From assembly GCA_965250085.1 (NCBI GenBank), contig OZ252287.1, forward strand, positions 1,184,001 to 1,248,000: a stretch of DNA of 64,000 nt, in the 5' to 3' direction. The notes beneath the pieces were generated by a model. It did not search any database. It saw only the letters and a program-made list of their open reading frames with translations, and was not told the DNA's origin. Source of the DNA: Candidatus Altimarinota bacterium. Its GTDB lineage: Bacteria > Patescibacteriota > Gracilibacteria > CAIRYL01. The translations under genes and the position numbers were made by a program. Shown here one piece after another: positions 19,123 through 55,264 of the stretch (position 1 is its first letter; each line of letters starts with the position of its first letter).

Positions 19123-19242
19123 AAATCTCAAGCTTTTCAGGAAAAAATCATATTTTGTTACAAAACGTATGTTTTTCGAGCTGTTTTGCTGTTTCTCACA
19201 AGGTGGCGTGATATACTGGGCGCACTTTTCTTCATTTTTATT

Positions 19243-19890
19243 ATGCAAATCTATTTGGACACCGCAAATCTTGAAGATATCAAAAAATATGCTTCATGGG
19301 GTATTGTAGATGGTGTTACCACCAATCCTTCACTCGTCGCTAAAGAGGAAGGGGTTGATTTTGAAACTCGAGTCAAAGAAATTGCCAAAGTAATTTCCGG
19401 GCCAGTAAGCGCAGAGGTGATTTCTGTTGATGCCGAAGGCATGGTAGAAGAAGGGCGACGAAATGCCAGTTGGGCAAAAAATGTATTTGTAAAACTTCCC
19501 ATGACAACAGAAGGACTGAAGGCCTGTAAAGTTTTAAGCAGTGAAGACGTCAAAATAAATATGACTCTTATTTTTAGCGCATCTCAGGCGCTTCTCGCCG
19601 CTAAGGCAGGAGCCACTCTTGTAAGCCCATTTGTCGGAAGGATTGATGATATCAATCACGACGGTATGGAAGTCATCTATGATATTGTGGATATTTTTGC
19701 CACTTATGGGATCGAAACAAAAGTTCTCGCGGCGAGTATTCGACATCAACAACATGTTTTGGAATCTATGAAGGCAGGAGCTGATATTGCCACCATGCCT
19801 CCTTCTATTCTTGAAAAAATGGCTGCGCATCCACTCACAGATAGTGGACTTGCCGCATTTTTATCTGACTGGGAAAAGCGAAAAAAATAG
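19243..19890 (+). CDS. tal: Transaldolase / fructose-6-phosphate aldolase (TalC/Fsa)
   Basis: [35 protein letters not shown]. Confidence 0.94.
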
Positions 19891-19968: not shown

Positions 19969-20586
19969 ATGTCAAAAAGCAATATTTCATATATCTTGTT
20001 TTTAGCAGGTATCGGTGTTGTATTACTTGTCGGATTCTTTCTTAGGGATACTTCTTACACAGATAGACAACAGATCTCCTCTAAAAAAACTCCGAATGAT
20101 ATATTTGAACTACCGGTTTCTGATAATTATTATGGACCTCAAATAGTGGTAAGTCCTGAGGAATTTAATGATAAAGAATTGCTCAAATTTATTTCAGATC
20201 AGCATAAACAAGTTCATTATACAAGAGATGAAGAAAATGTTTACTTTCAAGGTAATAAAATTGAAGGAGCTGATGCGGACACTTTTCAAATTCTTGGAGA
20301 ATACGAGGCAAAAGATGCCAACTCAATTTATCTTCGTGGAAAAAAAATATTCCCAGAGGTAGACGTAGATACATTTGAAGTGCTTCTCGGTGGATGTCTT
20401 TACAGAGACAAAAACGGTGTGTATTCAGAAACATTTGTGAAGCAAGATGTTGCCAACCTCCTATCATTTAGAATATATGAAAAACAATATGCAGTGGATG
20501 ATCAGTTTTTATATGCAATTAAAAGAGGATTACAAAAAAACGGAACTTGCCATCTAGAAAAACAAGCATTACCACAATTTCTTTAG
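19969..20586 (+). CDS. DKNYY-repeat membrane-anchored protein
   Basis: N-terminal TM helix; repeats RDEENVYF..KIEGADADTF, KDANSIY, RDKNGVY. Confidence 0.8.
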   Translation: MSKSNISYILFLAGIGVVLLVGFFLRDTSYTDRQQISSKKTPNDIFELPVSDNYYGPQIVVSPEEFNDKELLKFISDQHKQVHYTRDEENVYFQGNKIEGADADTFQILGEYEAKDANSIYLRGKKIFPEVDVDTFEVLLGGCLYRDKNGVYSETFVKQDVANLLSFRIYEKQYAVDDQFLYAIKRGLQKNGTCHLEKQALPQFL

Positions 20587-20597
20587 TAAGAGTTTTT

Positions 20598-21890
20598 ATG
20601 ATCACCCTCGATACCTCAGCACTTCTCCAAATCTCATCTCAGCATGGGCTCTCTGAGGATGAATTGAGTGGCCAGGACGATAAAATTGCTAACTTTCTCA
20701 AAAAAATAAAAGCACGTGGTCAAGGATTTTATACCGATGAAGTGTTGAACGATGAAAAACTTATAACCGACATCGAATCGTATACCAAAAGTGTAGAAGG
20801 GAAATATGATCATGTGATTGTCTTGGGTATTGGAGGGTCATCGCTGGGTATGATCTGCCTAAAAGAAGCGTTTGGAAATTTGTTTACGGGGACATCTCCA
20901 CAAGTGCATGTTCTGGACAACATTGATCCTTCTTTTCTGAAAGAATGTGAAGATCATCTGGATGTCAAAAAAACTCTTTTTATTGTGATCAGTAAATCTG
21001 GAGGAACTCCGGAAATACTTTCTGAATATTTTTATTTTTCAGAAAAAGTGGCAAAAGCGGGTCTCAAAGTAAAAGATCATTTTGTCTGTATTACGGATCC
21101 AGAAAAAGGATTTTTGCGAGAAGAGGTCAACAAGAAGGACATAGAGTCTTTTTCCGTGCCAAACAATGTGGGAGGTCGATTCTCAGTCCTTACCGCTGTG
21201 GGCCTTGTGCCAGCAGCGCTTGCAGGCATTGATATTCGTGGGCTTTTACAAGGAGCACGAGCTATGCGTGATACATTTCTTTCGGAGAACGGCAGCAAAA
21301 ATATCAGCTTCCAACTCGCAACGGTGCAATATCTTTTGGCACAGAAAGGAAAGACTATGAATGTCATGATGCCATATTCACAGAAGCTCTATCGAATGGC
21401 TGACTGGTATCGTCAGCTTTTGGCAGAGTCGATTGGAAAAAAACAAAGTGAAACCGGGAAGGAGGTTCATGTCGGACTTACTCCAGTGAATGCTCTCGGA
21501 GCAACAGATCAGCATTCACAATCACAGCTGTATATGGAAGGTCCTTTTGATAAATTTTTTATTTTTCTGGAGCTGGAGGATTTTGGAACAGATATGGAGA
21601 TCCCTCTTCCACATCCAGATGATGAACGGGTCAATTTCTTAAAAAATACGAGTTTTCAAAAATTGATGCATACAGAAAAAGCTGGTACTGCTGGAGCCCT
21701 TACAGAAAACAATCGGCCGTATATTACGGTCAAAATTCCAAATATTTCAGAAGAACATATGGGACAACTTTTTCTGTTTTTTGAAGGAGCGATCGCTTTC
21801 TTGGGAGAATATTACTCGATTAACGCTTTTGACCAACCGGGAGTAGAGCTTTCCAAAAATTTGACGAAGAAGTTGCTTTTGAAATCGTGA
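20598..21890 (+). CDS. pgi: Glucose-6-phosphate isomerase
   Basis: GIGGSSLG, ISKSGGT, VGGRFSV, QLLAESIGK, TDQHSQ, FDQPGVE. Confidence 0.96.
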   Translation: MITLDTSALLQISSQHGLSEDELSGQDDKIANFLKKIKARGQGFYTDEVLNDEKLITDIESYTKSVEGKYDHVIVLGIGGSSLGMICLKEAFGNLFTGTSPQVHVLDNIDPSFLKECEDHLDVKKTLFIVISKSGGTPEILSEYFYFSEKVAKAGLKVKDHFVCITDPEKGFLREEVNKKDIESFSVPNNVGGRFSVLTAVGLVPAALAGIDIRGLLQGARAMRDTFLSENGSKNISFQLATVQYLLAQKGKTMNVMMPYSQKLYRMADWYRQLLAESIGKKQSETGKEVHVGLTPVNALGATDQHSQSQLYMEGPFDKFFIFLELEDFGTDMEIPLPHPDDERVNFLKNTSFQKLMHTEKAGTAGALTENNRPYITVKIPNISEEHMGQLFLFFEGAIAFLGEYYSINAFDQPGVELSKNLTKKLLLKS

Positions 21891-21897
21891 AGTGCTT

Positions 21898-21997
21898 GAT
21901 AAAATCCCCCTCAATCCCCCTTTTTCAAAGGGGGAAGTTCCCCTCTTTACAAAAGAGGGGTTCCCTAAAGGGATCACTTCGTAGCTAGGGGAGATTT
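21898..21997. repeat. 100-bp composite palindromic element (family A), intergenic copy
   Basis: Reverse complement matches 28523-28622 at 96 of 100 positions. Confidence 0.92.
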
Positions 21998-22054
21998 TTA
22001 TTGCACATTCAACTCTCAACATTGTACATTGAAGAACGATTTTCTTATTGACCT

Positions 22055-22753
22055 ATGGATCGAGCAGAACGAATTCAACTCTGGATATCCTATTTTATTC
22101 GTATCAATCTTCTGATTGCGCTGGTCGTTGCTGTCGTGACAGGTCAATGGCTCAACCTTTTTCTCATCGTTATTATTTTTGCTCTTACCTTTCTCCCCGC
22201 ACTCCTAGAGCGCAACTACAAGGTCTCCTTACCTATTGAGTTTGAATTTGCCATTATTGTTTTTGTGTATCTTTCCCTCTATCTGGGAGACTACCATTCG
22301 TTCTATTCTCGGTTCTGGTGGTGGGATATTTTTCTTCACGCTGGATCGGGGCTCATTCTTGGATTCATTGGGTTTCTTATTGTGTATATTCTCAATACTG
22401 AGCAAAAAATACGACTCCATATGGCACCAAAGTTTGCGGCGCTTTTTTCGTTCACGTTTTCCATCGCCCTAGGAGCGATGTGGGAGATGATAGAGTTTGT
22501 ACTTGATGTTATATTGGGATCCAATATGCAGAAATCAGGACTTCAGGATACTATGCTTGATCTTATGCTCGATACAGCAGGAGCTCTTGTTGTTTCCATA
22601 TTTGGATATCTGTACCTCAAAAGAGGAAAAGCATTCTTGTTTGATACAATCCTCAGAAATTTTATTGAAGAGAACCCCAAGCTTTTTGCAGGACATAAGT
22701 TTCTCCTCGGGAAAAAACTGAAGGAGAAGTGGAAGGAAAGAAAGAAGTTGTAA
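22055..22753 (+). CDS. Integral membrane protein, DUF2238/VanZ-like
   Basis: WWDIFLH, LGAMWEMIEF and DTMLDL motifs in TM helices. Confidence 0.75.
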   Translation: MDRAERIQLWISYFIRINLLIALVVAVVTGQWLNLFLIVIIFALTFLPALLERNYKVSLPIEFEFAIIVFVYLSLYLGDYHSFYSRFWWWDIFLHAGSGLILGFIGFLIVYILNTEQKIRLHMAPKFAALFSFTFSIALGAMWEMIEFVLDVILGSNMQKSGLQDTMLDLMLDTAGALVVSIFGYLYLKRGKAFLFDTILRNFIEENPKLFAGHKFLLGKKLKEKWKERKKL

Positions 22754-22914
22754 GAAGTTTAAAAAAATCGTTACTGATATGTGCTTATAAATCGCATCTC
22801 TCATAGTTCTACAATTTTTGCGCGAGTTGTAAACGCACACGAGTAAGAACATAGCGAAATATATTGACACTTCTTTATTATAAGCCTATATTCATACTAA
22901 ATTTTTCGTTCAAA

Positions 22915-23400
22915 ATGGACAAACTTATGTCTGAAACACCCGAAGTTGAATCAAATAGAGAAGAGATACCTCAATCATCTCCAGATATAACGCTCATAAA
23001 AAAAAAGATGACTTTCGCGGTGACAGCCTGCATTGGTTTATTCTTTGGCACTGGAGTTTTGTTGGAAAATGCTCGGAGAACACAAGAGCTCACTAAAGTT
23101 GTTACTGGTCTTTCTTTGTATGATCCCACCTTGTCAAAAACTCCAATTGCTATTCGTTGTACTCCTGATCCAACATCCACTCCTCAAGGATTTGTTGACT
23201 CAAATGGGATTTTAAAAGAAACAAATTGCCATCTTGATGCCGGACGCTTACGAGAATGGATGTTATCAGAAGAGCGAAAGGCCCAAGAATTTCGAGAATG
23301 GCTGAATGGTCAGGAATTTGTGACAGCAGAAGATGGATCCAAAGAAAAGGAAGTCACTTTGAGTGAATATATTGAAGCCGTGACAGCAGAGGAAGAATAA
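22915..23400 (+). CDS. Hypothetical single-TM orphan protein
   Basis: TTGACA-17-TATATT promoter at 22864-22892; acidic Pro-rich N-terminus followed by a TM helix. Confidence 0.65.
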   Translation: MDKLMSETPEVESNREEIPQSSPDITLIKKKMTFAVTACIGLFFGTGVLLENARRTQELTKVVTGLSLYDPTLSKTPIAIRCTPDPTSTPQGFVDSNGILKETNCHLDAGRLREWMLSEERKAQEFREWLNGQEFVTAEDGSKEKEVTLSEYIEAVTAEEE

Positions 23401-23404
23401 ATGC

Positions 23405-23890
23405 TTACTCTCTCTCTCCGAGTTCCTTATCGAGTATATAGAGACTTGATCCCGAGGATCCGATCATCTTTATTTTTTCGATCACTGCTGAGACAGAAGA
23501 TTCTTCTTCAACCTGTTCGTCTATAAACCACTGCAGGAATGACTGAAATGGATAGTCTTTTTCTTTCACTGCCAAGTCGTACAAGCTGTGTATCATTTTT
23601 GTTACGTTTTGTTCCTGCTTCAATGATGCTTCAAAGACATTGAGCAATGATGAATAGCTTGCTTTGGGAGCACTGAGGCTTTTGAGTTCAATATTTCCTC
23701 CGCGTTCGAGAAGAAAATTATAAAATTTCATGGCATGGGTCACTTCTTCCTGAGACTGTGCCTGCATCCAGGCGGCTGCACCAGAGAGATTTTGAGAACT
23801 GAGATATGCGGACATTGCCAGATATGTATATGCGGATACAAGCTCTGCATTGATCTGGGCATTGATAGCATCCACTATATTTTTTTTCAT
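23405..23890 (-). CDS. ftnA: Non-heme ferritin
   Basis: INAELVSAYTYLAMS, EEVTHAMKF, FLQWFIDEQVEEE. Confidence 0.95.
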   Translation of the reverse strand: MKKNIVDAINAQINAELVSAYTYLAMSAYLSSQNLSGAAAWMQAQSQEEVTHAMKFYNFLLERGGNIELKSLSAPKASYSSLLNVFEASLKQEQNVTKMIHSLYDLAVKEKDYPFQSFLQWFIDEQVEEESSVSAVIEKIKMIGSSGSSLYILDKELGERE

Positions 23891-24036
23891 GTTTTCAAAA
23901 AAAAGGTGAAGAAATTGTACGGCTTTTTCTACAGAAAATCCAAGACAAACCGTGCTTATGATCACAAAAAATATCAATACCGATTTGTGATTTTTGACGG
24001 AGAGAACTAAGATCAAGCACACATGTTTTTATTCGA

Positions 24037-24948
24037 ATAAACCTCAAACAACATCTTGCCGGCACCAAAGCTCCTACAGATGTACAAAAGGTTATTCTCG
24101 CTATTTCTCAAGCAGGAAAGAAGATCTATGAAGCTTTGAAAACACAAAAAATAGAGTATTCCACCACTCAAAACACTTCTGGAGAAGTGCAACTTTCACA
24201 TGATCTTCTTGCTGACGAAATCCTCAAAGAAGCACTCGAAGAATCTGGTGTCGTCTCCTGCTTTGTTTCTGAAGAGAGAGCAACGGAACTGTGCTTTGTT
24301 GAGCATGCTCCGCAAAAACTTCTCATTGCCTTTGATCCTATTGATGGATCATCTGTTGCCAGTTCTGGACTGGCGGTAGGAACCTCTGTTGGTATTTACA
24401 GAGGGGTAAACAGTTTTCTTGAGGCAACGGGTAGAGATCAAGTCGCCTCGATGTTTCTGCTGTATGGTCCGCGTGTCATTTTGGTCTACACGGTGTGCGA
24501 AGGAGTAGATGTATTTGCCCTTGATGAAAAAACAGGAGAGTTTGAGCACGAACAGGAAGATGTGAAACTTGCAGAGAATATTAAAATTTGTGGACTGGGA
24601 GCGATGCAAAAACTTCATCAGGTATCAGGATATGACAAACTCATTGATTTTTGGCAAAAAGAACACTATTCCGTTCGATATTCTGGCAGTATGGCAGGAG
24701 ATATGAATGCGCTGCTCAAGAAAGGAGGTGGAGTGTTTGCATATCCGGCGCCAAAACTTCGCCTCTTATACGAGTGTAATCCTTTTTCCCTCCTTGTAGA
24801 ACAAGCGGGAGGCAAAGCTTGTAATTTAAAAGGAGAAGATATCTTGGATCAAAATATTACGGAAATCGAAAGTCCTTCCCCGATCATTATTGGAGCACAG
24901 AAAGAAGTGAATGATGCCTTGAGGTTTTTTATGAAAGGTGAAATATGA
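24037..24948 (+). CDS. fbp: Fructose-1,6-bisphosphatase class I (start codon uncertain)
   Basis: NTSGEVQ..D, SEE, FDPIDGSS, RYSGSMAGD, KLRLLYECNP. The frame stays open upstream of TTG 24136 to ATA 24037. Confidence 0.88.
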   Translation: MNLKQHLAGTKAPTDVQKVILAISQAGKKIYEALKTQKIEYSTTQNTSGEVQLSHDLLADEILKEALEESGVVSCFVSEERATELCFVEHAPQKLLIAFDPIDGSSVASSGLAVGTSVGIYRGVNSFLEATGRDQVASMFLLYGPRVILVYTVCEGVDVFALDEKTGEFEHEQEDVKLAENIKICGLGAMQKLHQVSGYDKLIDFWQKEHYSVRYSGSMAGDMNALLKKGGGVFAYPAPKLRLLYECNPFSLLVEQAGGKACNLKGEDILDQNITEIESPSPIIIGAQKEVNDALRFFMKGEI

Positions 24949-26060
24949 AAAAATACTCTCCTCCTTATTGAGGGGGAGCTACGAGAGGGTGGACATCGCA
25001 CCAAAAGATTAGAAGAGGGATAGAAAACACTGTACAGTTGTACTGTTTTTACTTTTGGAATCATGAAACGAAACATAATTCTCATTATTTACTTACTTCT
25101 GTTTTTTGGATCAAACCATGAATTTGTTTCAGGACAATATTATTCTCCTCGTACCTTACGGTGTTCTGAAATTGAAGGAGCGGATTGTCGGTCATTTGTT
25201 CTTTTTGGATATGGATATTCAAAAGATAAAAACTTTGCGTATTTTGAAGACAAGATCGTAGAAGAAGCCGATGTTACTTCTTTTGATGTCGATGAAGATA
25301 GTGGAATTGCAAAAGACAAAAAATTTGTTTATTGAGCAGACAAATCCATTCCAGGTGCAGATGTTCTATCTTACCAGAAATTATATATGCCAAGTGGAGA
25401 AATTCATACATATCCCTATGCGAAAGATGATAACTTTGGCTACTACGATTGCATAAAAATAGAAAACAGCGATGGAGCTTCTCTCGAAGTAATCAATTAT
25501 TACTACGCGAAAGATAAGGATTTTATGTATTACCAAGAAAAACCTATATCAAAAGCAGATATTGCATCTTTTGAAGTTCTCGGGTTTGGCTATGCGAAAG
25601 ATAGGAATTTTGTGTATTACGAAGAAAATCTTATACCAGGAGCAGATGTATCATCTTTTGAGAATCTTGACAAAGATTATTATGCGAAAGACAAAAACTT
25701 TACATACTACCAGGGAGAAAAAGTGGAACTTCTCGAATTATCGTCCTTTATTGTACTTGATTCCGAGTATAAAAAACTTGAAAACTCAATATACTATGAA
25801 GATAGAAAAATAGAAGGAGTTGATATTACCTCTTTTGAAGTTCTCGAATCTGGCTATGCTAAAGATAAAAACGCGGCATATTTCAAAGGAAAAAAGATTC
25901 ATAACAGTGATGTCGATTCTTTTGAATATGTTGGCTATTCTTTTAAGCATTTGAATGGCATTTCCTATCATTGCCACTATGCAAAAGATAAAAGCTTGGT
26001 GTATTGTAATGGTCTCATTGACATGCAGTATGACAGTGCTTCATTTGAGGTATTAACTTA

Positions 26061-26770
26061 GGCTCTTGAGTAGAATAATTACTTCAATTATTCTCTTAAC
26101 ATGCTTAAACATAGTAAAATATCGAATTATAAGATCAAAAAAATATTGAAGTGTTTTTGTGAAGATCTCAATGCATCAAAAACAGCAAATATTCTAGATC
26201 TCAATCGGAGAACGGTTGATCGATATTTTAATATTTTTAGAGAAAAGATTGCAAAGTTCTCTTTAGCACAGTCAAAGAGTTTTGGAGAATTTGAACTTGA
26301 TGAAAGTTACTTTGGAGCAAAGAGAGTGAGAGGAAAGAGAGGAAGAGGAGCCGCAGGAAAGACTCCTGTCTTTGGAATCCTTCAAAGAGAAGGAAGGGTA
26401 TTTGTTTCTATTGTAAAAGATTGCTCCAGAAAAGAGCTCCTACCTATTATTCAAGGAAAAATACTAGAAGGATCAACTATTCATACTGATGGATGGAGAG
26501 CTTATGATGGACTCATTCTCAATGGATATGATCACTATCGTATTCATCACTCAGAAAATGAATTTGCACGAGGAAAATGTCATGTAAATGGTATTGAATC
26601 CTTTTGGTCTTTTGCGAAAAGAAGACTCTCTAAGTTTAACGGAATTGCTTCTCACAAGTTTAACTTTCACCTCAAAGAATGTGAGTGGCGATGGAACTAT
26701 AAAGATCAAGATATTTTTGTTATAATGTCCAAAATTATCAGAGATTTTTAAAATCTCCTACTCTAGAGCC
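26061..26770 (+). mobile_element. IS1595-family insertion sequence (710 bp)
   Basis: Terminal IRs ggctcttgagtag / ctactctagagcc (12/13 match); 7-bp target duplication taactta at 26054-26060 and 26771-26777. Confidence 0.95.
26101..26751 (+). CDS. IS1595-family (ISXO2-like) DDE transposase
   Basis: ELDESYFG, RGRGAAGKTPVFG, IHTDGWRAY, HVNGIESFWS, LKECEWRWN. Confidence 0.95.
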   Translation: MLKHSKISNYKIKKILKCFCEDLNASKTANILDLNRRTVDRYFNIFREKIAKFSLAQSKSFGEFELDESYFGAKRVRGKRGRGAAGKTPVFGILQREGRVFVSIVKDCSRKELLPIIQGKILEGSTIHTDGWRAYDGLILNGYDHYRIHHSENEFARGKCHVNGIESFWSFAKRRLSKFNGIASHKFNFHLKECEWRWNYKDQDIFVIMSKIIRDF

Positions 26771-27609
26771 TAACTTATTACTATACAAAGGATAAAGCAT
26801 CAGGATATCTCCAGGGGAAAGAGATAGAAGGGAGTGATGGAACCTCTTTTGAAGGTTTGGACAGTAATTATGCGAGAGACAAAAATACTGTGTATTATTG
26901 GGATAAAAAAATAGAAGCAAGTGATCCTGCTTCGTTTGAAATCATTGACTCTATATATACGAAGGATAATAACTATAGGTATGCGTGGGGGGAAAAGTTT
27001 GTATGGAAAATTAAAGAGGATTCCCCATATTGGGAGGAAGTATATTTTTTGTCGCAACAGTATATATACAGCAACTATGCGGAAAGGGGATTCGATCTTA
27101 AGGAATTCGTGGATAGAGTACAGTTTATAGAATTCATTGTTGCAATTAATTATGATCAATCTCATGCTGAGGAATGTATCCAAAAACAGAGTGATGCTCT
27201 TTTTCCAGATGTTTCATCTGAAGAATGGTTTGCTCCGTATGTATGTGTTGCTCGGCAGGAAGAATTAGTGCAAGGCTATCAAGATGGACTTTTTTATCCC
27301 ACAAAAAATATTACCTTTGCCGAAGCCGCCAAAATTATATCTCTTATAAAAAATAAGGAAATTAAACCTGGTACAAGTTTTGAGTGGCACATCCCATATG
27401 TTGAGTTTCTGAAGCAAAAAAATGTCGTACCGGACACGAATCCAAGTCCTTCTCAACAACTTACCTGGGGAGAAGCTGCTCAGATGCTTTATCGAATGTC
27501 TCAGCAAGAATAGAAATTATTTGTTACCTTCCTTCCAAAAATTTTCTGGAAAATTAGCCGTTCCTGAGTTCTTTCGCTATACTTGAGGCGATCTCTTGAG
27601 AAACGAAAA

Positions 27610-29106
27610 ATGTCAGAAAAATATGATATTGGACTTATCGGACTCGCAGTTATGGGGGCAAATCTTGCTCGAAATCTTGCTAATAATGATCACAAAACCC
27701 TTGTTTTTAACCGTACCACTAAAAAAACTACTGAATTTGTAAAAGAATTTGGTGGAGAAAATTTGCAAGGAGCAGAGTCTCTCGAAGAGTTTGTTGCTTC
27801 GCTCTCTGCGCCACGAAAAATTATTATCATGATTAAAGCAGGGAATCCAGTAGACATGCAAATAGAAGCCCTCGTTCCGCTCTTAGAGAAAGGCGATATT
27901 GTGATTGACTGTGGCAATTCCCATTGGTCGGACACCGTGCGCCGAGAAGAACACTTGAAGAAAAAAGGGATTTTGTTTTTTGGAACCGGGGTCAGTGGCG
28001 GAGAAGAAGGAGCTCTCAATGGACCAAGTATTATGCCGGGCGGGAATAAAGCGGCGTATCAAAAATATCTGGCGCCAATATTTGAATCTATTGCGGCTAA
28101 AGATTTTTCTGAAGGGAAATGTGTTACTTGGATTGGGGAAAATGGAGCTGGGCATTATGTAAAAATGGTACATAATGGAATTGAGTATGCGGTTATGCAG
28201 ATGCTCGCAGAAGTATATGACATGCTTCGAAAGTTGTATTCACTGAAGCCTCCTCAAATGGCGGAGATTTTTCAAAATCTTCATTCTGGAAAACTTCAAT
28301 CATTTCTTACGGAAATTTCTATCGAAATTCTAAAAAAAGAAGACGATCTTAAAAAGGGATATCTCATCGATACAATACTTGATGCAGCAGGTCAAAAAGG
28401 GACTGGAAAGTGGACAGTATTTGATGCCGTAGAAAGAGGAGTTGCAGCATCGAGTATTTCTGAAGCCGTTAACGCTCGTGTTATTTCCAGTCAAAAGGAT
28501 CTGAGGGTTCAACTGTCACAACAAATCTCCCCTAGCTACGAAGTGATCCCTTTAGGGAACCCCTCTTTGCAAAAGAGGGGGACTTCCCCCTTTGAAAAAG
28601 GGGGATTGAGGGGGATTTTATCTCAAAAAGATTTTATATCCCTCCTAGAAGATGCAATTTCTGCAGGAATGCTGAGTGCATATGCTCAGGGATATGCACT
28701 GATTTCTCAGGCAGCTCAAGAACAGAACTGGGATATAAATCTCGCGGAAATCTCACGTATTTGGCAGGGAGGATGCATTATTCGCGCCAGAATACTCGAA
28801 TTCCTCAACGATACATTTCGAAAGTCAGGAAGTAAAACCTCTCAGCTCTTGAGTCTGCCGGAAATAGCTCAAGAAATCTCTGCTTCACTTCCATCAATGA
28901 GAATGGCGGTTTCTACTGGGATTATGGGAGGAGTGCCACTTCCGGCTCTTTCAAGTGCACTTTCCTATCTTGAAAACATAAGAAACCAAGAAGGAAGTGC
29001 TAATTTTATTCAGGCACTCAGGGATAATTTTGGTGCTCATACATTTGAGCGCAACGATCAGGAAGGAATATTTCATGCAGACTGGAATGATTCAGATAAT
29101 TCCTAA
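27610..29106 (+). CDS. gnd: NADP-dependent 6-phosphogluconate dehydrogenase with an in-frame repeat insertion
   Basis: GLAVMGANLA, GVSGGEEGA, VKMVHNGIEY, QKGTGKW, WQGGCIIRA, QALRDNFGAHTF. Confidence 0.96.
   Translation: MSEKYDIGLIGLAVMGANLARNLANNDHKTLVFNRTTKKTTEFVKEFGGENLQGAESLEEFVASLSAPRKIIIMIKAGNPVDMQIEALVPLLEKGDIVIDCGNSHWSDTVRREEHLKKKGILFFGTGVSGGEEGALNGPSIMPGGNKAAYQKYLAPIFESIAAKDFSEGKCVTWIGENGAGHYVKMVHNGIEYAVMQMLAEVYDMLRKLYSLKPPQMAEIFQNLHSGKLQSFLTEISIEILKKEDDLKKGYLIDTILDAAGQKGTGKWTVFDAVERGVAASSISEAVNARVISSQKDLRVQLSQQISPSYEVIPLGNPSLQKRGTSPFEKGGLRGILSQKDFISLLEDAISAGMLSAYAQGYALISQAAQEQNWDINLAEISRIWQGGCIIRARILEFLNDTFRKSGSKTSQLLSLPEIAQEISASLPSMRMAVSTGIMGGVPLPALSSALSYLENIRNQEGSANFIQALRDNFGAHTFERNDQEGIFHADWNDSDNS
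28523..28622. repeat. 100-bp composite palindromic element (family A), copy inside gnd
   Basis: Encodes ISPSYEVIPLGNPSLQKRGTSPFEKGGLRGILS; inverted near-identical copy at 21898-21997. Confidence 0.92.
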
Positions 29107-29137: not shown

Positions 29138-29512
29138 ATGTCTAATGATCTCAAATATGATTTAGAGGAGAGAACTGCTAAGTTTGGAGAAGGAATCATC
29201 GTGTTTTGTAAAAAAATACCAGAAAATACAATTATACGACCAATTATTTCTCAGTTGATAAGATCAGCTACTAGCGTTGGAGCAAATTACTCAGAAGCAG
29301 ATAATGCGGAATCTAAAAGAGATTTTAAACACAAGATCGGCACTTGTAAGAAAGAATCAAAAGAAACAAAACATTGGCTTCGAATGCTTATATCAGCTAT
29401 TCCTGAATTTACAGAGGAAGCAAAAAAATATATGCAAGAAGAGAAGGAATTAAACTTAATCTTCAATGCTATAATGTATTCTGCAAATAAGAAACAGTCA
29501 TTTTGTCATTAG
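29138..29512 (+). CDS. Four-helix-bundle protein (23S rRNA IVS protein / Avd-like family)
   Basis: DLEERT, QLIRSATSVGANYSEA, ESKRDFKHK, KESKETKHWL. Confidence 0.92.
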   Translation: MSNDLKYDLEERTAKFGEGIIVFCKKIPENTIIRPIISQLIRSATSVGANYSEADNAESKRDFKHKIGTCKKESKETKHWLRMLISAIPEFTEEAKKYMQEEKELNLIFNAIMYSANKKQSFCH

Positions 29513-29565: not shown

Positions 29566-30987
29566 ATGAAAACTCTTCAAAAGCCCTTCATTCTCACTAT
29601 CTTCGGTGCTTCTGGAGATTTGGCAAAGCTCAAGATATTTCCATCAATTTTTTCTCTTGCTGAGAAAAAACTTCTCCCAAAAAATTTTTATATTGTGGGA
29701 TACGCGAGGAGTAAAAAAGATCGTGAGAATTTTCAAAGAGAGTTTCTCTACAGTATTATCGAAGCCCATGGAAAGAAAAAAGGATTTTCTGCTGCACTCG
29801 TAGAACAGCTTATTTCCCATGTGTACTACTTTTCCGGACAATATGATCAGAAAGAGGATTTTGTAGCATACCGAAAGTATCTTTCGGATATTACCAAAGG
29901 GAAAGTGGGATCTATGCCTCATATTGCCTATTTTTCCGTTCCACCATTTGTATTTCATCCGATTATTGAAAATTTGGCATTGGCGCGAAAATCCAAATCA
30001 GAAGATATTCGAATTGTTTTGGAAAAACCGTTTGGAGATGACGAAGAATCTGCTCAAAAACTTTTTCATTTTATTTCTCAGTATTTTCAGGACAAACAAA
30101 TCTACCTCCTGGATCACTATTTGGGGAAACCAGGAGTACAGAGTATCTTGTCTTTAAGACATGCTAACAGCATTCTCAATATGCTCCTGAAGGGGAGAGA
30201 GATCGCTACTATTCAGATGAGTGCACTCGAAGATTTTGGAGTCGAAGAGCGCATTGGATATTTTGATGAAGTGGGAATCATGAAAGATATGTTTCAGTCA
30301 CACCTGACACAAATACTCGCCATGATTACGATGTCTATTCCACTGACAGAGACTGCAGAGAGTTTTCAACGGGAAAAATATGCCATTCTTTCGGCGCTCA
30401 AATTTTCTCCAAAAAAAGACCATATCTATTTAGGACAATACAAAGGATATCGCGATCTTGAAGGAGTCAAAAAAGGATCCAATACAGAAACATTTATGAG
30501 CGTAAAAATTAAAATAGATAGGGAGAGCTGGTATGGAGTCCCTATTTTTATTCGTACTGGGAAAAAGATTGATCGGAAAATAACGTATGTGGTCATAGAG
30601 TTTAAAAAGATGAAATTTCAGAAACACCTTGAGCCCAACAGGCTTATTATTGAATTACAGCCGGATCAAAAAATCCATTTCAAACTCCTCAACAAACATG
30701 GACACTCTATTGACCATCATGAAGTCAGTCCGTCGGAATCTATCGCATGTGGCGAGGACAAATGTCTCCCAGAACATGCCACACTTCTTCTGGATGTTCT
30801 CAATAAAGACAAACTTCATTTTCTGAGCTTCCTTGAAGTTCTTGCTGCATGGCGCATTACCGATTCAATTCTCGGTTTTATCAAAAGATCAAAAATGACA
30901 CCTGAATCATATGAGCATGGCACTCCTTCTCCTCAAAAGAGTGAACAGATCTTTCATAAACAAGGAGAAGGATGGTTTGAAATATAA
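29566..30987 (+). CDS. zwf: Glucose-6-phosphate 1-dehydrogenase
   Basis: IFGASGDLA, LEKPFG, DHYLGK, WYGVPIFIRTGK. Confidence 0.95.
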   Translation: MKTLQKPFILTIFGASGDLAKLKIFPSIFSLAEKKLLPKNFYIVGYARSKKDRENFQREFLYSIIEAHGKKKGFSAALVEQLISHVYYFSGQYDQKEDFVAYRKYLSDITKGKVGSMPHIAYFSVPPFVFHPIIENLALARKSKSEDIRIVLEKPFGDDEESAQKLFHFISQYFQDKQIYLLDHYLGKPGVQSILSLRHANSILNMLLKGREIATIQMSALEDFGVEERIGYFDEVGIMKDMFQSHLTQILAMITMSIPLTETAESFQREKYAILSALKFSPKKDHIYLGQYKGYRDLEGVKKGSNTETFMSVKIKIDRESWYGVPIFIRTGKKIDRKITYVVIEFKKMKFQKHLEPNRLIIELQPDQKIHFKLLNKHGHSIDHHEVSPSESIACGEDKCLPEHATLLLDVLNKDKLHFLSFLEVLAAWRITDSILGFIKRSKMTPESYEHGTPSPQKSEQIFHKQGEGWFEI

Positions 30988-45848: not shown

Positions 45849-48800
45849 TTATCGTGTGCTCTGTGATGTACTAGTGGCTTCAATAGGAATCAAAAATCCA
45901 ATAGGGAGATCATCCAGGAGTCCGGGATCATATTCAAGGATTACTGCTGAGAGGAATTGAGTTTCTGCCAGATCATTATTTCCAGAGAAACTTCCGTTGT
46001 CGTCATATGAGGCAACACTACTCCAGTCCTGACCATCAAATCTTCGGGCTTCTTTCGAAGCGGTGTCTGCTGTCATCCAAATTTTCGGACCATTTGGATT
46101 GGGCACACAATTTACCAGTTCACAATCTTCACTCTCCATACCGTCAATAATGCCATCACCATTGATGTCATCTTCAAGTACCAGAAGGCGTTCAAACTTT
46201 CTTATTTTTTGAAGATCAAACCGAGTTGCTACCTTGAGAGCGGTTTCATCTCCGCTTGCGATATAATTGCTGATATATGTTGAATATTGATCAAATGAGG
46301 TAGTTGATGGCATAAGGAGATGTTCATAGTTCGGAAGACCTACGAGAGTCGAAGGTGCTGAAGCTAAGTTTTTGACTTGAGTAACTCCACCAGCGGTGTT
46401 TTGACTTGAGAACGCACCTAAAAAGTACAACTGATGGATCAGGGCATTATCCCATGCCACTTGGTTCTGAATACCATCATAGATACCCAACGTATCATCC
46501 ATAGTAAGAAGGGATCCTTCTACAAACGCAGCGGCTTTTATATTGGTTGGATTGGGTGAGATGAGCAGGTTCCCATATTGCTGGAATATACTTGTACCAA
46601 CTCCAGAAGATCTATTTTTGAGAATAATAATTCCCAAGTTTCCTGCACCAGTAATATTGTTTTTGAGATACACATTTCCTCCTTCTACAATAAGAGTACG
46701 AGGAGATTCTTCAGAATTGGAGCTCAAAACAGAATCACCATCGATTATGAGAGTAAATCCTTTATTCTGAGTGCCAGAAGTGATCCAAAGGACTTTGTTT
46801 TCTTCAAGAAGTCGACCAACACCCTTGGCGTTCGTTTGAGGATTACCAGAACTAGGAGTAAAGAGCTCGTCGATATTGGCAAAAATCATGTCAGAATCAA
46901 TCCCACTGATAAGATGTGTCGTAGTATCAACGGATTCATCAGCGGTTATTTTGCCGCTGATGAATGGATTTTGTGGCTCATTTGCATCAGCGTCATATGC
47001 ACGAGTAATTTCAGCAACGCTGCGGCGGATACCTTCTTGCATGGCGCTGTAGGGAAGATATCCAGAATCAAAGCTAACAGCTTCTGTGTTATCAATCGCG
47101 TCTGGTTCAACGCCTTCTCCATGAGTAGCTCCAGAGACAGAGAAGTACAAAATACCAACTCCTCCCGGATCTACGCACAATTCTGGATATCCCAAATCAC
47201 AGCATTGCTGATTGGTCAGTCCATCACATTCATGAGGAGGAAGAGGGCATCCAGGAGCATTCAATGGAGGAGCCGCGCAAAAGTCGGGATCTTTGGAGGC
47301 CATTTCATACTTAGCGGTTATCCCATTAATTTCGTAAGTAATGTACGCTAGATATTTGAGTTTATGACTCGGTTCCCAGCTTCCAATTACTTCGGGCACA
47401 AACTGCATGGTAAATGTTTCATTTGCGTCCAAGAGAGTAGAAAGAGCATCGTGTATGGAGCCGCTCCGCATACTGCCAAAGAGAGTAGTTCCTGCCACCT
47501 TTGCGAGTTCAAAGAGATTAAGAGGAGTCGCTGAAAATGGAGGGGTGAGACTCGTTGGATAAAAATTTTCAAAATTGATAAGCCGAGTTGGGTGTTGATT
47601 TCCATCTACGTCCTGAGTGTTCAGTTCCTGTAGCCAGGAGACATTCGTGACCTCTGTGGTGCTAGCTTTCTCAAGCGTGATATCAAAAAATCCGGTTTCT
47701 TCCTCTGGATAAGAAGTCGCAAACGTAGGGGTAGCCCGTATCATAGGAGCAAATTGAAGTGAATTTTCTGATCCGAAGAGATTTGCTGTTCCAGAAAAAA
47801 TCGGTTTTCCAGAGGCAGGAAGAGCTGTATCATCAAATCTCTGTGTTACATTCATAGCAGTTTTGATAGCGGCAGGGGAGAGAGCTCTGTCATAGATTTT
47901 TACATCGTCTAGCGTGCCATCAAAGTACGAGGCATTTTGATATGAAGTTCCAAGGCGAACATTCGCAAGATTGATATTAAGCGTATCGGTTTCATCCGAA
48001 TCTTTGAGTTCTCCATTAAGATATAATTTGCTTCCTCCAGTATCGCTGGTTGTCACGGCGACATGATACCAAGTATCGTTTTGGAGTTCAGAAGGAAGGA
48101 TTCTGAGAGTACTTCGGAAGCAAAGATTTCCATCGGCATTACTCGCATCTCCACCACTGGCGATATCAGTGCTGCACACACCAGTAGCTGGAGAGTGGTC
48201 CTGTATAAGCCACCAAGCGGCACCACTGGTGACTCCATCGCGACCATCTACTAAGAACTGGGTCCCTGAGTTTGTGTTTAGTTTTTTAAACCACATCATA
48301 AGGGTTGCCTCATTTGGATCCCCAAGAGAGCCAATATTTATCCAGTCATTATTGCCATCAAAGGATAGACCATTACTATGTTTGGCTTCTCCCCAGACAG
48401 CACCACCGTCTCCTCCGTCATTCACCGTTCCATCATTGGCATTGGCACTTTCATCATTTGCAACAGAACCACTCGTTTCATCAAGTGGAAGAGACATGAG
48501 AAGATCTGTATGAACAGGAGAGAGTCTTCTGGAGAAAGAAAAGTCATCGACCCATAAGCGATTGTCTTCTGTGTTGCCTCCGTCACCATAGTTGGTCGGA
48601 GCCATGGAAAAAATACGGAAACCCATCTGATTAGAGGGGACATCAAGAGTGCTTACTGTTTTGAGACTTGTTCCAGAAGCAGGGTTTACAATGAGGGATG
48701 TTGGAATATCTGTATTTGTTACGTCTTGGTATCTGGTGGCATCACCAAGTGTTCCGGCTCCAGGTTCTCCCAAGATTTGGACGAGTGAAATGCGATCATC

Positions 48801-51800
48801 AAATTGTAGAGAAATCTCGCCATCAAAAGCATTATTCTCCAAAAGAGTCACATCGTCCCAATACACATCGGTATTCAGAATATTAGAATAGGTCGCCAGT
48901 CGTATTTGGATCGTATCATCTGCTCCAGATACTGGTGTGAGCACAGGTGTCTCAAGGTACATCCATTCCCCAGTGCCGGTGACGACGTTACTGATGGCAT
49001 GAGCATTGCCCCATGGATTCGAGTGGGCAGAGAGTCGCACATCAATCCCTACAGGAGCTTTGACCCAAGCAGATGCAAAGAAGTCTCTTCCAAGAGCGCT
49101 GTTTGTCAGAGTTATGGTTTGTCTCAGTCCGTGACAATGCGGATGATTTTCACTGGCATAACAATCTCCGGGGGTTGTGCCAGTAACAGTGGATTTGACC
49201 GAATATGTTCCAGAATGTGCTTCTGCAGAGGTCCATTCTTCAGAGAGGGACGCGCTGTCTATTACAGCCCAATCAGAAGCATCAGTTCCACTTCCAGCTT
49301 CCATACCGGCATTTTGAACGTGAGAGCTAAACCACAGTGGCTCTGAGAAAGAAGTAGCATTTCCATATTGATCGTACAGTTCCACATTAAAGTCATAGCT
49401 ATCGGTCAGGTCAGCCACTGGATAGGCATTAGCGGTAACAGCAGATACCTCCCTTTGGACACTTGCATTATCCACATAGAATCGAGCTTCTACTGTCCCA
49501 TAGTGACCATATATATAAAACCGAGCAAAGCTGTCCATATCTACGTTGCTGTTGAGGGTAAAGACATGCTCAATCGTCTGCCACTGGTCAGCGATGGAAA
49601 CATATTTTTCTATTAATCCCATTCCTTCAGACTCTGTGCCCCATGAAGGCGTTCCTCCTTCTTCATGATGAATGCCAAATTTCACGGGCTTATTAACATC
49701 TGTTACTTTGACATCCAGAGAAACTTTGAGCTTTTCTCCCTGCACAAATCCACTCGCCCCCAAATCAGTAGCAATTGTTTGCCAGTCTCCCATCCATCGG
49801 TGAGTAAGGCCATAAGTGCCATTTTCATCAATGAATTCCAAGCATCCTCCACTTCCACCAGTACATTCAGTCCCCGTGGTGATATGTGAAAAATAACCAA
49901 TACTTGGAGAAGCAGCGCCAGCATTATATCCACCATTCCATCCCCCTGATCCTCTTGTCGTTCCGTTGAGAGCGGTATCCCATCCGGGAGTATATGCTTC
50001 GGACGAAGAAAAATCTCCATTTGTGAGGACACTATCTCCCCAATCGGTTACATTGGCGTCTATTTCTGCTTTCGAGTTAGTGCCATCGCACCCGCTCCAG
50101 CACGGATCTCCAGAAGTAATCTGATACACAATCGGGTCACCCGCAATTATTCCCGGGAGACGAATATTATTGATCGTGCTCTGAATATCCTTGTCATAGA
50201 GCCTTCCCGTGAGCCAATACAGACCGGGTGTTTTGGAAATACTTCCCATCATATTGAGATGGATGGTTTTTCCATCTGCACTACAGCTCAGGGTATAATC
50301 AGACCCTTTGCTGAGAGGCACACTATCCAGATATCCAGACATCCCAGAGGTTAATGTACCATTTTGCATCACGGTTCCAATTTCTGAGGTCGTCAAAGCT
50401 CGATCATAGATACGAATATCGTCTATAACACCATTAAAATAAACACTGCTTGCTCCGTCTAGATTTCGCCCTATATTCAGGGCAGTATTGTCAGATATAG
50501 GAGCCCCTCCAGCAGAGCCATTGGCCTGTTCTATTCCATTGATATATGTCTTTGCTGTAGTGCCATCATTTGTGATTACCACATGGTTCCACTGATCTCC
50601 AGTGATTGAGCCGATAGGTGTGTTAGGAGCTCCATCGTTAGTGGAGGTACTGTTATGAAATCGATGGTGGATAAATCCATCCGAGTGGAGCCATATATTA
50701 AAATTTCTTCCTGGCTTTCCCACAATCCCTGCCCATTCTGTTGGAGCGCCATTTCCGTTTGGCTTAATCCATACTGCAACTGTGTAATTCGTTATATTCA
50801 GGTCTGGATTTGCTGATACGGTTGCATAATCACCAGTTCCATCAAAATCAAGTCCATTGCCATATCGTCCGCTTGTCCAACCCGCGCCAGAAATGCTTCC
50901 TTGCAAAAGATTGGGTCCAGAATCAGAGGCAGTAATTCCTGTTCCATCATCCAGACGATAATGAGCTATTGGTTGTACCTCAGTATAGGTAGTACCAAAA
51001 TCGGTATACACGGTGCCATCAACAATGCGATGAATTTCTGCATCCAGAAGAGAACAGTTCCCCAAACTCATATTTGAAGTTCCGAGCTCTATACCGTCAA
51101 TACTATCATCTGCTGTAAAAATATCGCTGCTCGCGGTGAGGGTAATGGATATATTGGGGATCCAAAATGTTGTTGTCTGATAGGTCGCATTGGAGTCAAT
51201 GTTGGTGTCATCAAAAACCGGAGAATTGCCGATAGTTCCTAAGAGCACAATATTATCAGAAAAAGAGAGCCATCCATATGTACTGCTCCACGCATATCCA
51301 TACATAAATCCGGATCCGCGCTCGATACACACTCCATAATTACTCGCACTCGGAGGATCAAAGCTTGTTTTATAAGACTCACACGGAGGAGTCCCATTTG
51401 AAAGAGTAAGCGTGCTTCCAGTAGAAAGGAAACTCGCGTCACCGTTCAAAATACCCCAGTCTCCATCTAAGGTACCATATGTCCCGCTAAAATCGAGAAG
51501 TCCCAGAGAAGAACTATAGGCATTTCCAGAGAGGGGATAGTGGTTATTTTCATCCGCAATGGTTGCAATAGAAACGCCTTGATATACACCGGCATATGAT
51601 GTGCCATCCGGATCTCCAAACATCACCCATCCCATATCCTGTCCGTAAGCACTGTTGTGAATATTTCCAAACCATGGTGTTCCCGAAACCTGGATATCTA
51701 CCCCAGCACCGCCAGGACACATCTCGCCAAACCATTCGACCCCTTCTTCCACCATCTGCCACTGCATCGTGTAATTACCGGGAATAGCAGGAGCGGTGAC

Positions 51801-53988: not shown

Positions 53989-54697
53989 GCTGGCTCCATA
54001 GTTCCACCTTTGGTGGACTGTGGAGCCCTTCTTCGTATATAGCAGCGGCAGTTCTTAGTTGGTTCAAGTTTGCAACTTGAACCATGTGTTTCCTTGATAT
54101 TTCATATTGCTTTCTCCAAAGATACCATTCTCTTCTCCACAGAGGGAGAATGTTTCCAAGTGAGGAGAGAAGGGCTTTGAGTGGGGAGACTGGCATAATG
54201 TCAGAGCTGTCTAATATTTTTATTATTCCAAGTATACGTGAGAGGAATTAAAAAACAACGGTATTCCGTCTGTCTTCCTGATCCCGAGCTCGTCGAGGGA
54301 ATGGAGCGACGAAGGATCTCTCTCGGATATTCGTGAAGATTTTTACAGATTCTTCGGCTTATGTTTCTTGGAGAGATCTAAACTTTGGAATACTCATCGT
54401 GAAGTATCTGAAGCCTCAGAATGACCAGGGTAGATAACTGCTATGACTTTTTTGGTCCCCCCGTTGGTTTTAGTCTTTTCCTCTCGCAGGAGTCTCTTGC
54501 AAAAGGACTCCAGCGTATTTTCCTCAATAGATCGTCGGAGTCCCAGAGTGGAGACTCCGCTGGGAAGAAGGTTGCGGGGAAACCATTTCTGACTTCCTGA
54601 GAAGTCCCAGCTGGCTCCATAGTTCCACCTTTGGTGGACTGTGGAGCCCTTTGTTGGTTCAAGTTTCCTCCTTCGGCGGACAAGTGCAACTTGAACC
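53989..54697. repeat. Dense REP/hairpin cluster upstream of the RAYT gene
   Basis: 42-bp identical hairpins at 53989-54030 and 54610-54651; GTTG-footed REPs at 54058-54083 and 54653-54697; a GTCxT..AGGATCT / AGATTCTTCG..CAGAATGAC pair at about 54272-54425. Confidence 0.85.
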
Positions 54698-54736
54698 GCA
54701 TGTTTCTATACTCTCCAATACATTTACAATAGAGTA

Positions 54737-55237: not shown

Positions 55238-55238
55238 G

Positions 55239-55264
55239 GGTTCAGGTTACAAACCTGAACCAAC
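55239..55264 (-). repeat. REP immediately downstream of RAYT, inverted relative to the upstream REP
   Basis: Minus strand reads gttggttcaggtttgtaacctgaacc, versus gttggttcaagtttgcaacttgaacc. Confidence 0.85.

Follow-up and report, generated by a model that had tools for sequence, protein, structure and literature searches.

In-frame occurrence of a palindromic repeat with predicted intrastrand triplex motifs in the 6-phosphogluconate dehydrogenase gene of a Candidatus Altimarinota bacterium

How does a palindromic DNA repeat come to lie within the coding sequence of a core metabolic enzyme, and what becomes of the enzyme? The question is raised by a 64,000-nucleotide stretch of a Candidatus Altimarinota genome (contig OZ252287.1, positions 1,184,001 to 1,248,000; the whole of this stretch is called the window below), in which gnd, the gene for 6-phosphogluconate dehydrogenase, contains a 100-nt composite palindromic element. 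The reading that we favour, with a probability of roughly 70%, is that the element, a DNA repeat that forms structure and does not code by itself, has been copied from place to place in this genome, and that its copy in the gnd coding sequence is tolerated. Copy A lies on the plus strand at 28523–28622, inside gnd, and encodes residues 306–338 of Gnd (counted from the ATG at 27610). Copy B is the same element inverted, on the minus strand at 21898–21997; it is intergenic, 8 nt past the stop codon of pgi and upstream of an open reading frame (ORF) at 22055. Direct comparison of copy A with the reverse complement of copy B gave 96 identical positions out of 100, the differences being at element positions 47, 48, 49 and 59, and bore out the initial annotation, which had described an inverted pair at 96/100 with one intergenic member. 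As the identity extends across arms, loops and linkers, it points to recent shared ancestry of the two copies. The pair is the top inverted repeat of the window in an inverted-repeat scan (121-nt arms, 89% complementary), and the 21-mer of the second hairpin of the element, with up to three mismatches, occurs at only two sites in the 64 kb (four matches over both strands) and in none of 100 shuffles. The window contains these two composite copies and one single unit. The element had also been called recently active, a claim that is supported in part and rests on two copies at 96% identity.

The gnd gene extends from 27610 to 29106 on the plus strand and encodes 498 amino acids from its ATG; the open frame starts at a TTG at 27583 (507 codons). 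The product matched the Pfam families 6PGD (E 1.8e-101) and NAD_binding_2 (E 3.4e-49), and could be aligned with the solved 6-phosphogluconate dehydrogenase 2iyp_A in a single HMMER stretch, 6–495 (E 1.4e-130). Ten residues (S129, K185, H188, N189, E192, Y193, K263, R290, R471 and H477) were invariant in 79 sequences, and we take these, by correspondence with the sheep enzyme, to be the catalytic and substrate-binding set. With both domains, the conserved residues and the predicted fold in place, Gnd has the characters of a long-chain decarboxylating 6-phosphogluconate dehydrogenase. The closest relatives that carry a name are Peregrinibacteria, at no more than 60% identity, and the contig has a length of 1.37 Mb, both in keeping with the earlier view of this genome as one resembling the candidate phyla radiation (CPR).

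Within this protein the element accounts for the peptide ISPSYEVIPLGNPSLQKRGTSPFEKGGLRGILS, 33 residues (306–338) between RVQLSQQ and QKDFI. Five of the six frames of the element are interrupted by stop codons and gnd reads the sixth, so that the peptide lies, as first annotated, in the single open frame 27583/27610–29106. To define the insert, Gnd was compared with 78 aligned sequences out of 120 homologues listed (8000 candidates were scored in the protein search). The segment K296–A352 is 57 amino acids long in this genome, compared with 31–45 in the 78 homologues, in which the commonest length is 35 (47/78), in agreement with the short variable loop that had been expected here; in the two closest relatives, at 67% and 65% identity, it has 39 and 35 residues. 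Orthologues carrying the same peptide in genomes that lack the repeat had been named as evidence that would speak against an insertion, and none of the 78 aligned homologues carries ISPSYEVIPLGNPSLQKRGTSPFEKGGLRGILS. Without the 33 element residues the segment would have 24 amino acids, against a mode of 35, so that about 11 native loop residues were replaced. Of the annotated gain of some 33 residues, the presence of 33 element residues therefore stands, but judged from the alignment the net gain is about 22 residues, not 33. With native codons lost, this was not a clean insertion; nor are the 100 shared bases a multiple of three. We also considered whether the ends of the insert (ISP.. and ..G[IV]LSQ) might be native loop, as one homologue has ISP and another GVLSQ; this was rejected because AAATCTCCCCT, at the 5′ end of the insert, recurs in other genomes as the conserved 5′ terminus of the element.

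An AlphaFold2 model of Gnd, made with the homologue alignment, had a mean predicted local distance difference test score (pLDDT) of 93.9 and a predicted TM score of 0.92. Confidence was low only at about 306–338, with pLDDT below 50 at 323–331, between helices 296–305 and 339–372. The insert is thus a low-confidence stretch between two helices with the remainder of the fold predicted to be kept, and a Foldseek comparison of the model with the Lactococcus 6-phosphogluconate dehydrogenase 2iyo gave a TM score of 0.95 (target-normalised) and a root-mean-square deviation of 1.8 Å. The catalytic motifs had been noted as intact, and the ten invariant residues, taken to be catalytic or substrate-binding, and the predicted fold agree with this. 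Gnd has probably remained active while carrying an additional, disordered loop; the peptide itself presumably has no function of its own.

A less eventful account of the gnd copy would be that it is an assembly artefact, or that gnd is dead and its frame is open only through recency. A single assembly was seen, repeats are classic mis-join sites, and copies that are 96% identical leave little time for decay. A mis-join would not, however, restore gnd after exactly 33 codons, and both flanks of the copy continue gnd in the same frame with normal conservation. Moreover, gnd reads the element in the one frame that is open, the fold is predicted to be intact, and gnd belongs to a pentose-phosphate cluster together with tal (19186–19890), pgi (20547–21890) and zwf (29566–30987), all of which have strong Pfam matches (that of PGI over part of the profile). 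We consider an artefact or a dead gene unlikely; on the sequence evidence, the in-frame, loop-replacing insertion in gnd is real, and it is probably tolerated.

The initial annotation had further suggested that the element is adding peptide segments to housekeeping proteins. For Gnd this holds; in this genome it is Gnd alone, and the peptide search likewise returned Gnd only. That search used 42 residues against about 5.8 billion non-redundant proteins of 75–2000 amino acids and found only Gnd, among three candidates; it is word-based, and by its own output a blank is weak evidence. HMMER with the 33-residue peptide against 1.84 billion representatives gave three matches at E ≤0.001, two of which were inspected and proved to be unrelated long tandem-repeat proteins, a result that says little because a 33-residue query is too short for significance in a search of that size.

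By its sequence, the element is made up of two GC-rich units in inverted orientation and one extra hairpin. Each unit has three blocks (an arm, a hairpin strand and a purine strand) that obey triplex rules, the arm repeating the adjacent hairpin strand in mirror image. Pairing between the two arms in addition makes the whole element fold as a closed palindrome, with imperfect terminal inverted repeats (AAATC(T)CCCCT / AGGGGGATTT). On the plus strand of copy A, the 5′ arm (AAATCTCCCCT, 28523–28533) forms the outer stem with the 3′ arm in the predicted folds. It also mirrors the pyrimidine strand in hairpin 2 and could therefore act as Hoogsteen strand in a triplex of the pyrimidine motif (class IV). 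The following 24-nt stretch includes hairpin 1 (TCCC TTTA GGGA, 28547–28558, plus strand), which is also seen in the folds. This lineage-specific stretch is missing from related elements in other genomes, and the 16-mer GATCCCTTTAGGGAAC of hairpin 1 is absent among the matches listed for the 123 loci described below. Hairpin 2 (CCCCTCTTT, loop GCA, AAAGAGGGG; 28560–28580, plus strand) is the hairpin of the 5′ unit and is likewise predicted to fold. The 3′ unit (CCCCCTTT, loop GAA, AAAGGGGG, loop ATTGA, GGGGGATT(T); 28585–28618, plus strand) reads on the coding strand as a class II, purine-type intrastrand triplex motif, with CCCCCTTT as the pyrimidine block, AAAGGGGG as the purine block and GGGGGATT(T) as the third. 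The triad-by-triad reading was made by inspection, as was the alignment of GGGGGATT antiparallel to AAAGGGGG, which is without mismatch.

A 120-nt stretch was predicted to fold with an outer stem around three hairpins. As RNA its folding energy was −44.8 kcal/mol (z −2.66), which none of 200 shuffles equalled, and as DNA −24.7 kcal/mol (z −3.70), which one of 200 equalled. An Rfam scan of 21700–28900 at E ≤10 gave five weak matches, all with E ≥0.57 and far under the gathering scores; none fits, and a described RNA family for the element was rejected. A terminator scan flagged neither copy as a whole; its one listing here was a sub-hairpin of 5 bp in copy A, minus strand. Of the four positions at which the copies differ, three (element positions 47–49) fall in the loop of hairpin 2, which reads GCA in copy A (28569–28571) and TGT in copy B (21949–21951). 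Inversion of the loop plus one substitution would explain this with fewer events than three substitutions, and loop flipping, if real, would imply extrusion of the hairpin in DNA.

The window was scanned for triplex motifs in the style of ITxF, by re-implementing the published criteria and allowing a hairpin loop of up to 8 nt. Three motifs were found (1873–1902, 21904–21935 and 28585–28616), and none in 30 Markov shuffles. The ITxF definition itself specifies a stem of 6–15 nt with at most one mismatch if the stem exceeds 7 nt, and loops of 1–6 nt; the 3′ unit of both copies falls within it, with a stem of 8, one mismatch and loops of 3 and 5. The scan places the 3′-unit motif of copy A, at 28585–28616, on the complementary strand. 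The remaining motif, at 1873–1902 on the plus strand, is a single unit of another variant (ACCCCCTC / CTCCCCCT / AGGGGGAG). It is followed by a TTTTTT run and lies between the convergent ORFs 363–1718 (plus strand) and 1909–2529 (minus strand), a terminator-like position. The single unit between convergent genes and the copy behind pgi seem to sit at places usual for such repeats.

Is the element peculiar to this genome? Species-representative genomes were scanned with an exact 20-mer, AAAGGGGGATTGAGGGGGAT, from the 3′ part of the element. It was present at at least 123 loci, compared with about one expected by chance (2 × 596 Gb / 4^20). Flanking sequence extended up to 2 kb at 80 of the loci and to only about 300 nt at 43; as the flanks differ from locus to locus, the matches do not stem from one contaminating sequence. 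Among the matches listed, record titles name Gamma-, Beta-, Alpha- and Deltaproteobacteria, Thermodesulfobacteriota, Cyanobacteria (Lyngbya, Pseudanabaena, Synechococcales), Chloroflexota, Acidobacteriota, Nitrospiraceae, Thermodesulfovibrionia, Omnitrophota, Poribacteria, Calditrichota, Zixiibacteriota, Elusimicrobia, Pirellulales, Trueperaceae, Rhodohalobacter, Deferribacterales, Binatota and Parcubacteria, and include the isolates Thiothrix caldifontis DSM 21228, Lysobacter sp. Root916, Luteimonas sp. R10 and Methylotuvimicrobium buryatense 5G; Peregrinibacteria occur in no title among those listed for the 123 loci. Plasmid matches came from five records (Acinetobacter, Pseudanabaena) and covered only 35–37% of the element, phage matches from two records of one Haemophilus phage (34%, inside a portal gene) that we took to be chance, and no BLAST match was obtained in 5,426 E. 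coli genomes. To judge from these sequence matches, the element family is not lineage-specific.

The common unit consists of an arm, a short linker, a pyrimidine strand, a loop and a purine strand, as in AAATCCCCCCT-AG-CCCCCCTTT-TTC-AAAGGGGGG. Among the matches listed there were 126 distinct occurrences, 57 of them single, 41 with an inverted partner 10–52 nt downstream, 26 with the partner upstream (closed doublets of 43–115 nt) and two with both. The window element is a closed doublet of the partner-upstream type. Once the 24-nt hairpin-1 stretch is left out, it aligns to doublets from records titled Acinetobacter (L046 and L109), Deltaproteobacteria (L094) and Nitrospiraceae (L077), with few differences outside the loops; a doublet from a record titled Parcubacteria (L118) is of another variant class and more divergent. 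Two other arrangements were seen among these loci. At seven (L021, L031, L051, L080, L099, L105 and L120; titled Anaerolineales, Desulfobacteraceae in three cases, Zixiibacteriota, Thermodesulfobacteriota and Pirellulales) a conserved palindrome of greater length, TCTCAATAAG.CC.GGCA ... CAGCCCGGA.TTATTGAGA, holds the triplex unit in its loop, which makes a second composite element that crosses groups. At three others (L015, L038 and L073) the units form tandem arrays with periods of 137, 177 and 237 nt, in Pseudoxanthomonas, Thiothrix and Lysobacter.

The units from these loci and from the window allowed the mirror relation between arm and hairpin to be followed across variants. Units were parsed by regular expressions, and in 29 of them arm and hairpin both had an internal T. 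In 28 of the 29 (15/15, 4/4, 6/6 and 3/4 by variant class), the T of the arm mirrored the T-A pair of the hairpin in position. One class, TCTCCCC / CCCCTCT / AGAGGGG, includes the 5′ unit of the window; the others are TCCTCCCCC / CCCCCTCCT, TCCCTCCC / CCTCCCT and TCCCCTC / CTCCCCT. In partner units too, which were unconstrained by the search pattern, the arm mirrors the hairpin strand and is thereby the parallel complement of the purine strand. Mirror repeats are not among the products of replication and recombination, which give rise to direct or inverted ones, and the rule therefore suggests that a three-stranded fold has been selected for. Such a fold would contain T.A-T and C+.G-C triads on the C-rich strand, and G.G-C, A.A-T and T.A-T triads on the G-rich strand. 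On these sequence characters, we assign the units of the element to the described intrastrand triplex motif class (BoxC/PIT/TM), outside its E. coli subfamily.

Occurrence in frame is not restricted to gnd. We looked among the matches listed for stop-free frames that run through the 20-mer and extend for 60 codons or more on its 5′ side and 40 or more on its 3′ side, and obtained 18 candidates, of which 17 were scanned with Pfam. At least four copies lie in frame inside conserved genes, with domains on both sides of the repeat or running through it, and alignment of these four to solved structures placed the extra or replaced residues exactly at the repeat. They are MnmE of a Nitrospiraceae metagenome-assembled genome (MAG), with about 50 residues where TrmE has about 10; an aminotransferase of a Methylobacter MAG, with 13 extra residues; a heptosyltransferase of a Hydrogenophilales MAG, with 38 residues versus 10; and an ABC exporter of a Geobacteraceae MAG, in which a linker is replaced with a net gain of three. 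A TPR protein of Thiothrix caldifontis and its homologue in another gammaproteobacterium have the doublet near the C-terminus. The remaining candidates were not counted, the repeat being upstream of or after the domain, or the frame being without a Pfam match. Four different frames are in use, giving peptides such as IPLNPPLKKGG, NPPQSPFxKGG, SPFxKGGLRGI and LPLCKRGIEGD.

How, then, was the element copied? The initial annotation had proposed mobilisation by a REP-associated tyrosine transposase (RAYT), REP being a repetitive extragenic palindromic sequence. In that case the element would be a REPIN (REP doublet forming a hairpin), cut and pasted as a single-stranded hairpin doublet by the Y1 transposase of the RAYT-like ORF at 54737–55237, without target duplication. 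The element is indeed an inverted doublet that folds as a hairpin, and no direct repeat was found in the flanks of either copy; HUH/Y1 enzymes (IS200/IS605, RAYTs) make no target-site duplication. The ORF (166 amino acids) matched Y1_Tnp with E 2.7e-4, but at 21.5 bits, under the Pfam cut-off of 23. It is, moreover, bracketed by hairpins of its own type, GGTTCARGTT..AACYTGAACC, at 54061, 54656 and 55239, the only three in the window, and a perfect 42-nt direct repeat (53989–54030 and 54610–54651) lies nearby; none of these resembles the element. No RAYT homologue was found among the matches listed (123 loci, 80 of them with flanks of up to 2 kb), the best tblastn match having E 0.43, and no neighbouring gene family recurs among 1092 ORFs of at least 90 amino acids, the largest group shared between loci comprising three loci. 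Mobilisation by this RAYT is thus not supported, and we regard it as very unlikely. The region itself (53989–55262) gives the impression of a RAYT accompanied by a REP type of its own, with the segment upstream of it duplicated, the 42-nt repeat enclosing about 580 nt without a convincing ORF.

Another proposal would make the element a miniature inverted-repeat transposable element (MITE), that is, an insertion sequence that has lost its interior but kept terminal inverted repeats, and that depends for movement on a DDE transposase gene elsewhere in the genome. Its 100-nt length, lack of coding capacity of its own and imperfect terminal inverted repeats are as expected of a MITE, and in-frame fusions by intragenic MITEs have been described as "not unusual" (PMC10969869). 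Neither copy, however, is flanked by a direct duplication, native gnd codons were removed, so that the event was not simple insertion, and no transposase recurs beside the copies among the 1092 ORFs. Single units and doublets of both orientations are common elsewhere (the 57/41/26/2 division of the 126 occurrences among the matches listed), a pattern that fits REP- or BoxC-like units and not a fixed two-ended transposon. We consider a MITE highly improbable.

What we prefer, for the structure-forming repeat, is a route in which the element would have been copied by templated copying or recombination, promoted by non-B structure, with a nearby copy as donor; a trans-acting single-strand transposase would rank second. 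The left flank of copy A (28502–28522, plus strand), which consists of native gnd codons (LRVQLSQ), matches the flank of copy B at 21998–22018 at 12 of 21 positions, a match equalled by only 0.18% of all 21-mers of the window. This flank similarity, the removal of gnd codons and the association of the motif class with local rearrangement together underlie the preference for templated copying or recombination.

Several points weigh against the favoured reading. The second loop of the 5′ unit measures 27 nt on account of the extra hairpin, outside the class limit of 1–6 nt. The figure of 28/29 for the mirror rule covers related sequences and amounts to about four independent variant classes, not 29 events, and conservation inside the 20-mer is by construction, the loci having been picked by exact match to it. 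Triplex formation here is deduced from sequence rules and from a different subfamily (TM_ECO). At neutral pH, successive C+.G-C triads are disfavoured. According to the introduction of PMC4666352, RNA does not form triplexes of the purine motif. The copies are only 4% apart, and decay of an inactivated gene may not yet be visible after so recent an insertion, while use of the one open frame, with a chance of 1 in 6, is weak evidence of selection. Finally, the 12/21 flank similarity does not follow from a longer element, since in gnd these bases are native codons.

Further features of the window were noted in passing. Between gnd and zwf, at 29138–29512, there is an odd passenger, a 124-amino-acid ORF of the 23S rRNA-intervening-sequence protein family (PF05635, E 1.7e-12). 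Upstream of gnd, 25215–26009 contains seven copies of a 33-nt coding repeat, about 67–79% identical to the reference copy and mostly spaced by 87–201 nt, which probably belong to a repeat protein with a YAKDKNF.YY motif, and the ORF at 26857–27513 has an SLH domain. The RAYT region is flanked by two minus-strand ORFs, 45849–53963 and 56359–59121, of 2704 and 920 amino acids; they are rich in Cys, Thr, Ser and Asn and look like surface proteins.

The element family is also translated inside conserved genes in records of other bacterial classes and phyla, and this admits a much wider reading, which as a whole we hold to be doubtful. Tiny triplex-forming palindromic units might spread between and within genomes without a linked transposase and come to lie, repeatedly and in frame, in the loops of core proteins. 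They would then be shared almost base for base among records titled Proteobacteria, Cyanobacteria, Nitrospiraceae, Chloroflexota and CPR bacteria, with Gnd, MnmE, the aminotransferase, the heptosyltransferase and the ABC exporter as hosts, in the manner of the Rickettsia palindromic elements and far more widely in taxonomic terms. The triplex fold, and not an enzyme encoded by the element, would be what the copying machinery recognises, and a CPR cell scavenging the DNA of its neighbours could gain the element horizontally. If the occurrence in gnd and the translated copies elsewhere hold up, they would provide a simple model for how non-B DNA repeats remodel protein loops, for the tolerance of extra loops by a conserved enzyme, and for whether such repeats cross phylum boundaries; interest would grow if in-frame spread over many bacterial groups holds up. 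There is also a warning for annotation, in that peptides such as SPFxKGGLRGI, IPLNPPLxKGG or NPPQSPFxKGG in proteins indicate repeat insertions and not domains.

Of known systems, the closest to the element in structure are the intrastrand triplex motifs, described earlier as BoxC, as PIT (Hoyne and Maher 2000) and as TM/TM_ECO (Holder et al. 2015, PMC4666352). The last survey reports such motifs as abundant and conserved in prokaryotes, with GC-rich ones very frequent in Cyanobacteria, and its introduction gives the class as without terminator activity in E. coli. Its GC-rich E. coli subfamily, TM_ECO (CCCTCNCCC N3-6 GGGNGAGGG N3 GGGNGAGGG), formed a triplex in vitro by circular dichroism and nuclear magnetic resonance; in E. 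coli MG1655 it is reported as always intergenic, also occurring as inverted pairs, and as linked not to transposons, phages or plasmids but to local rearrangement (PMC4666352). The window element shares with these repeats three consecutive GC-rich blocks (pyrimidine, purine, second purine) with short loops, class II on one strand and the pyrimidine-motif class on the other, stems that are kept while loops vary, occurrence as singles and inverted pairs, no linked transposase, and a range over many bacteria including Cyanobacteria. It differs from them in the extra hairpin of the composite, to which the 5′ unit owes its 27-nt loop. Membership of the TM_ECO/BoxC subfamily itself was rejected, since the block sequences differ (CCCCCTTT..AAAGGGGG ATTGA GGGGGATTT as against CCCTCNCCC..GGGNGAGGG N3 GGGNGAGGG), E. 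coli gave no match and copy A is intragenic: where TM_ECO in MG1655 is described as always intergenic, one copy here, and at least four elsewhere, are translated in frame. The main text of PMC4666352 nowhere uses "in-frame", "open reading" or "within genes".

The sequences of REPINs are specific to lineages and pass on mainly by vertical inheritance, whereas the window family shares a 20-mer across many bacterial groups. REPINs, as described by Bertels and Rainey (2011, PMC3116915), resemble the element in being inverted doublets with a spacer between the units, in the hairpin predicted for their single-stranded DNA or RNA, in the coexistence of singlets and doublets, and in the absence of target duplications. 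They differ in that they are described there as extragenic and as requiring a cognate RAYT flanked by the same units, which the RAYT-like ORF of the window is not. Literature searches with the DNA and peptide motif strings of the element returned nothing relevant, and among the matches listed for CPR or Peregrinibacteria together with MITE, REP or REPIN there was none on such repeats.

In behaviour the nearest parallel is that of the Rickettsia palindromic elements, and here the analogy drawn in the initial annotation holds, as one of behaviour. Those elements are palindromic, of about 100–150 bp, and are found in frame in unrelated metabolic genes with a peptide compatible with the fold; a 2024 review treats in-frame fusion by intragenic repeats as not unusual for MITEs and extreme for the Rickettsia elements (PMC10969869). 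In-frame insertion and a kept fold, the latter predicted, are found in Gnd as well. The Rickettsia elements are reported within Rickettsia, with many insertions per genome, whereas here one intragenic copy was found in 64 kb, made of units that are triplex motifs common to many bacterial groups. There are thus precedents for both halves of the observation, in-frame repeats in Rickettsia and in some MITEs, and intrastrand triplex repeats from 2000, surveyed in 2015. What is new is that the two meet: a repeat of the triplex-motif class lies within the gene for a core enzyme of the pentose-phosphate pathway, in a small genome of the CPR type. Both the sequence variant and its setting, inside a gene and in such a genome, are new, while the kinds to which the element belongs, the intrastrand triplex repeats and the in-frame palindromic insertions, are known ones.

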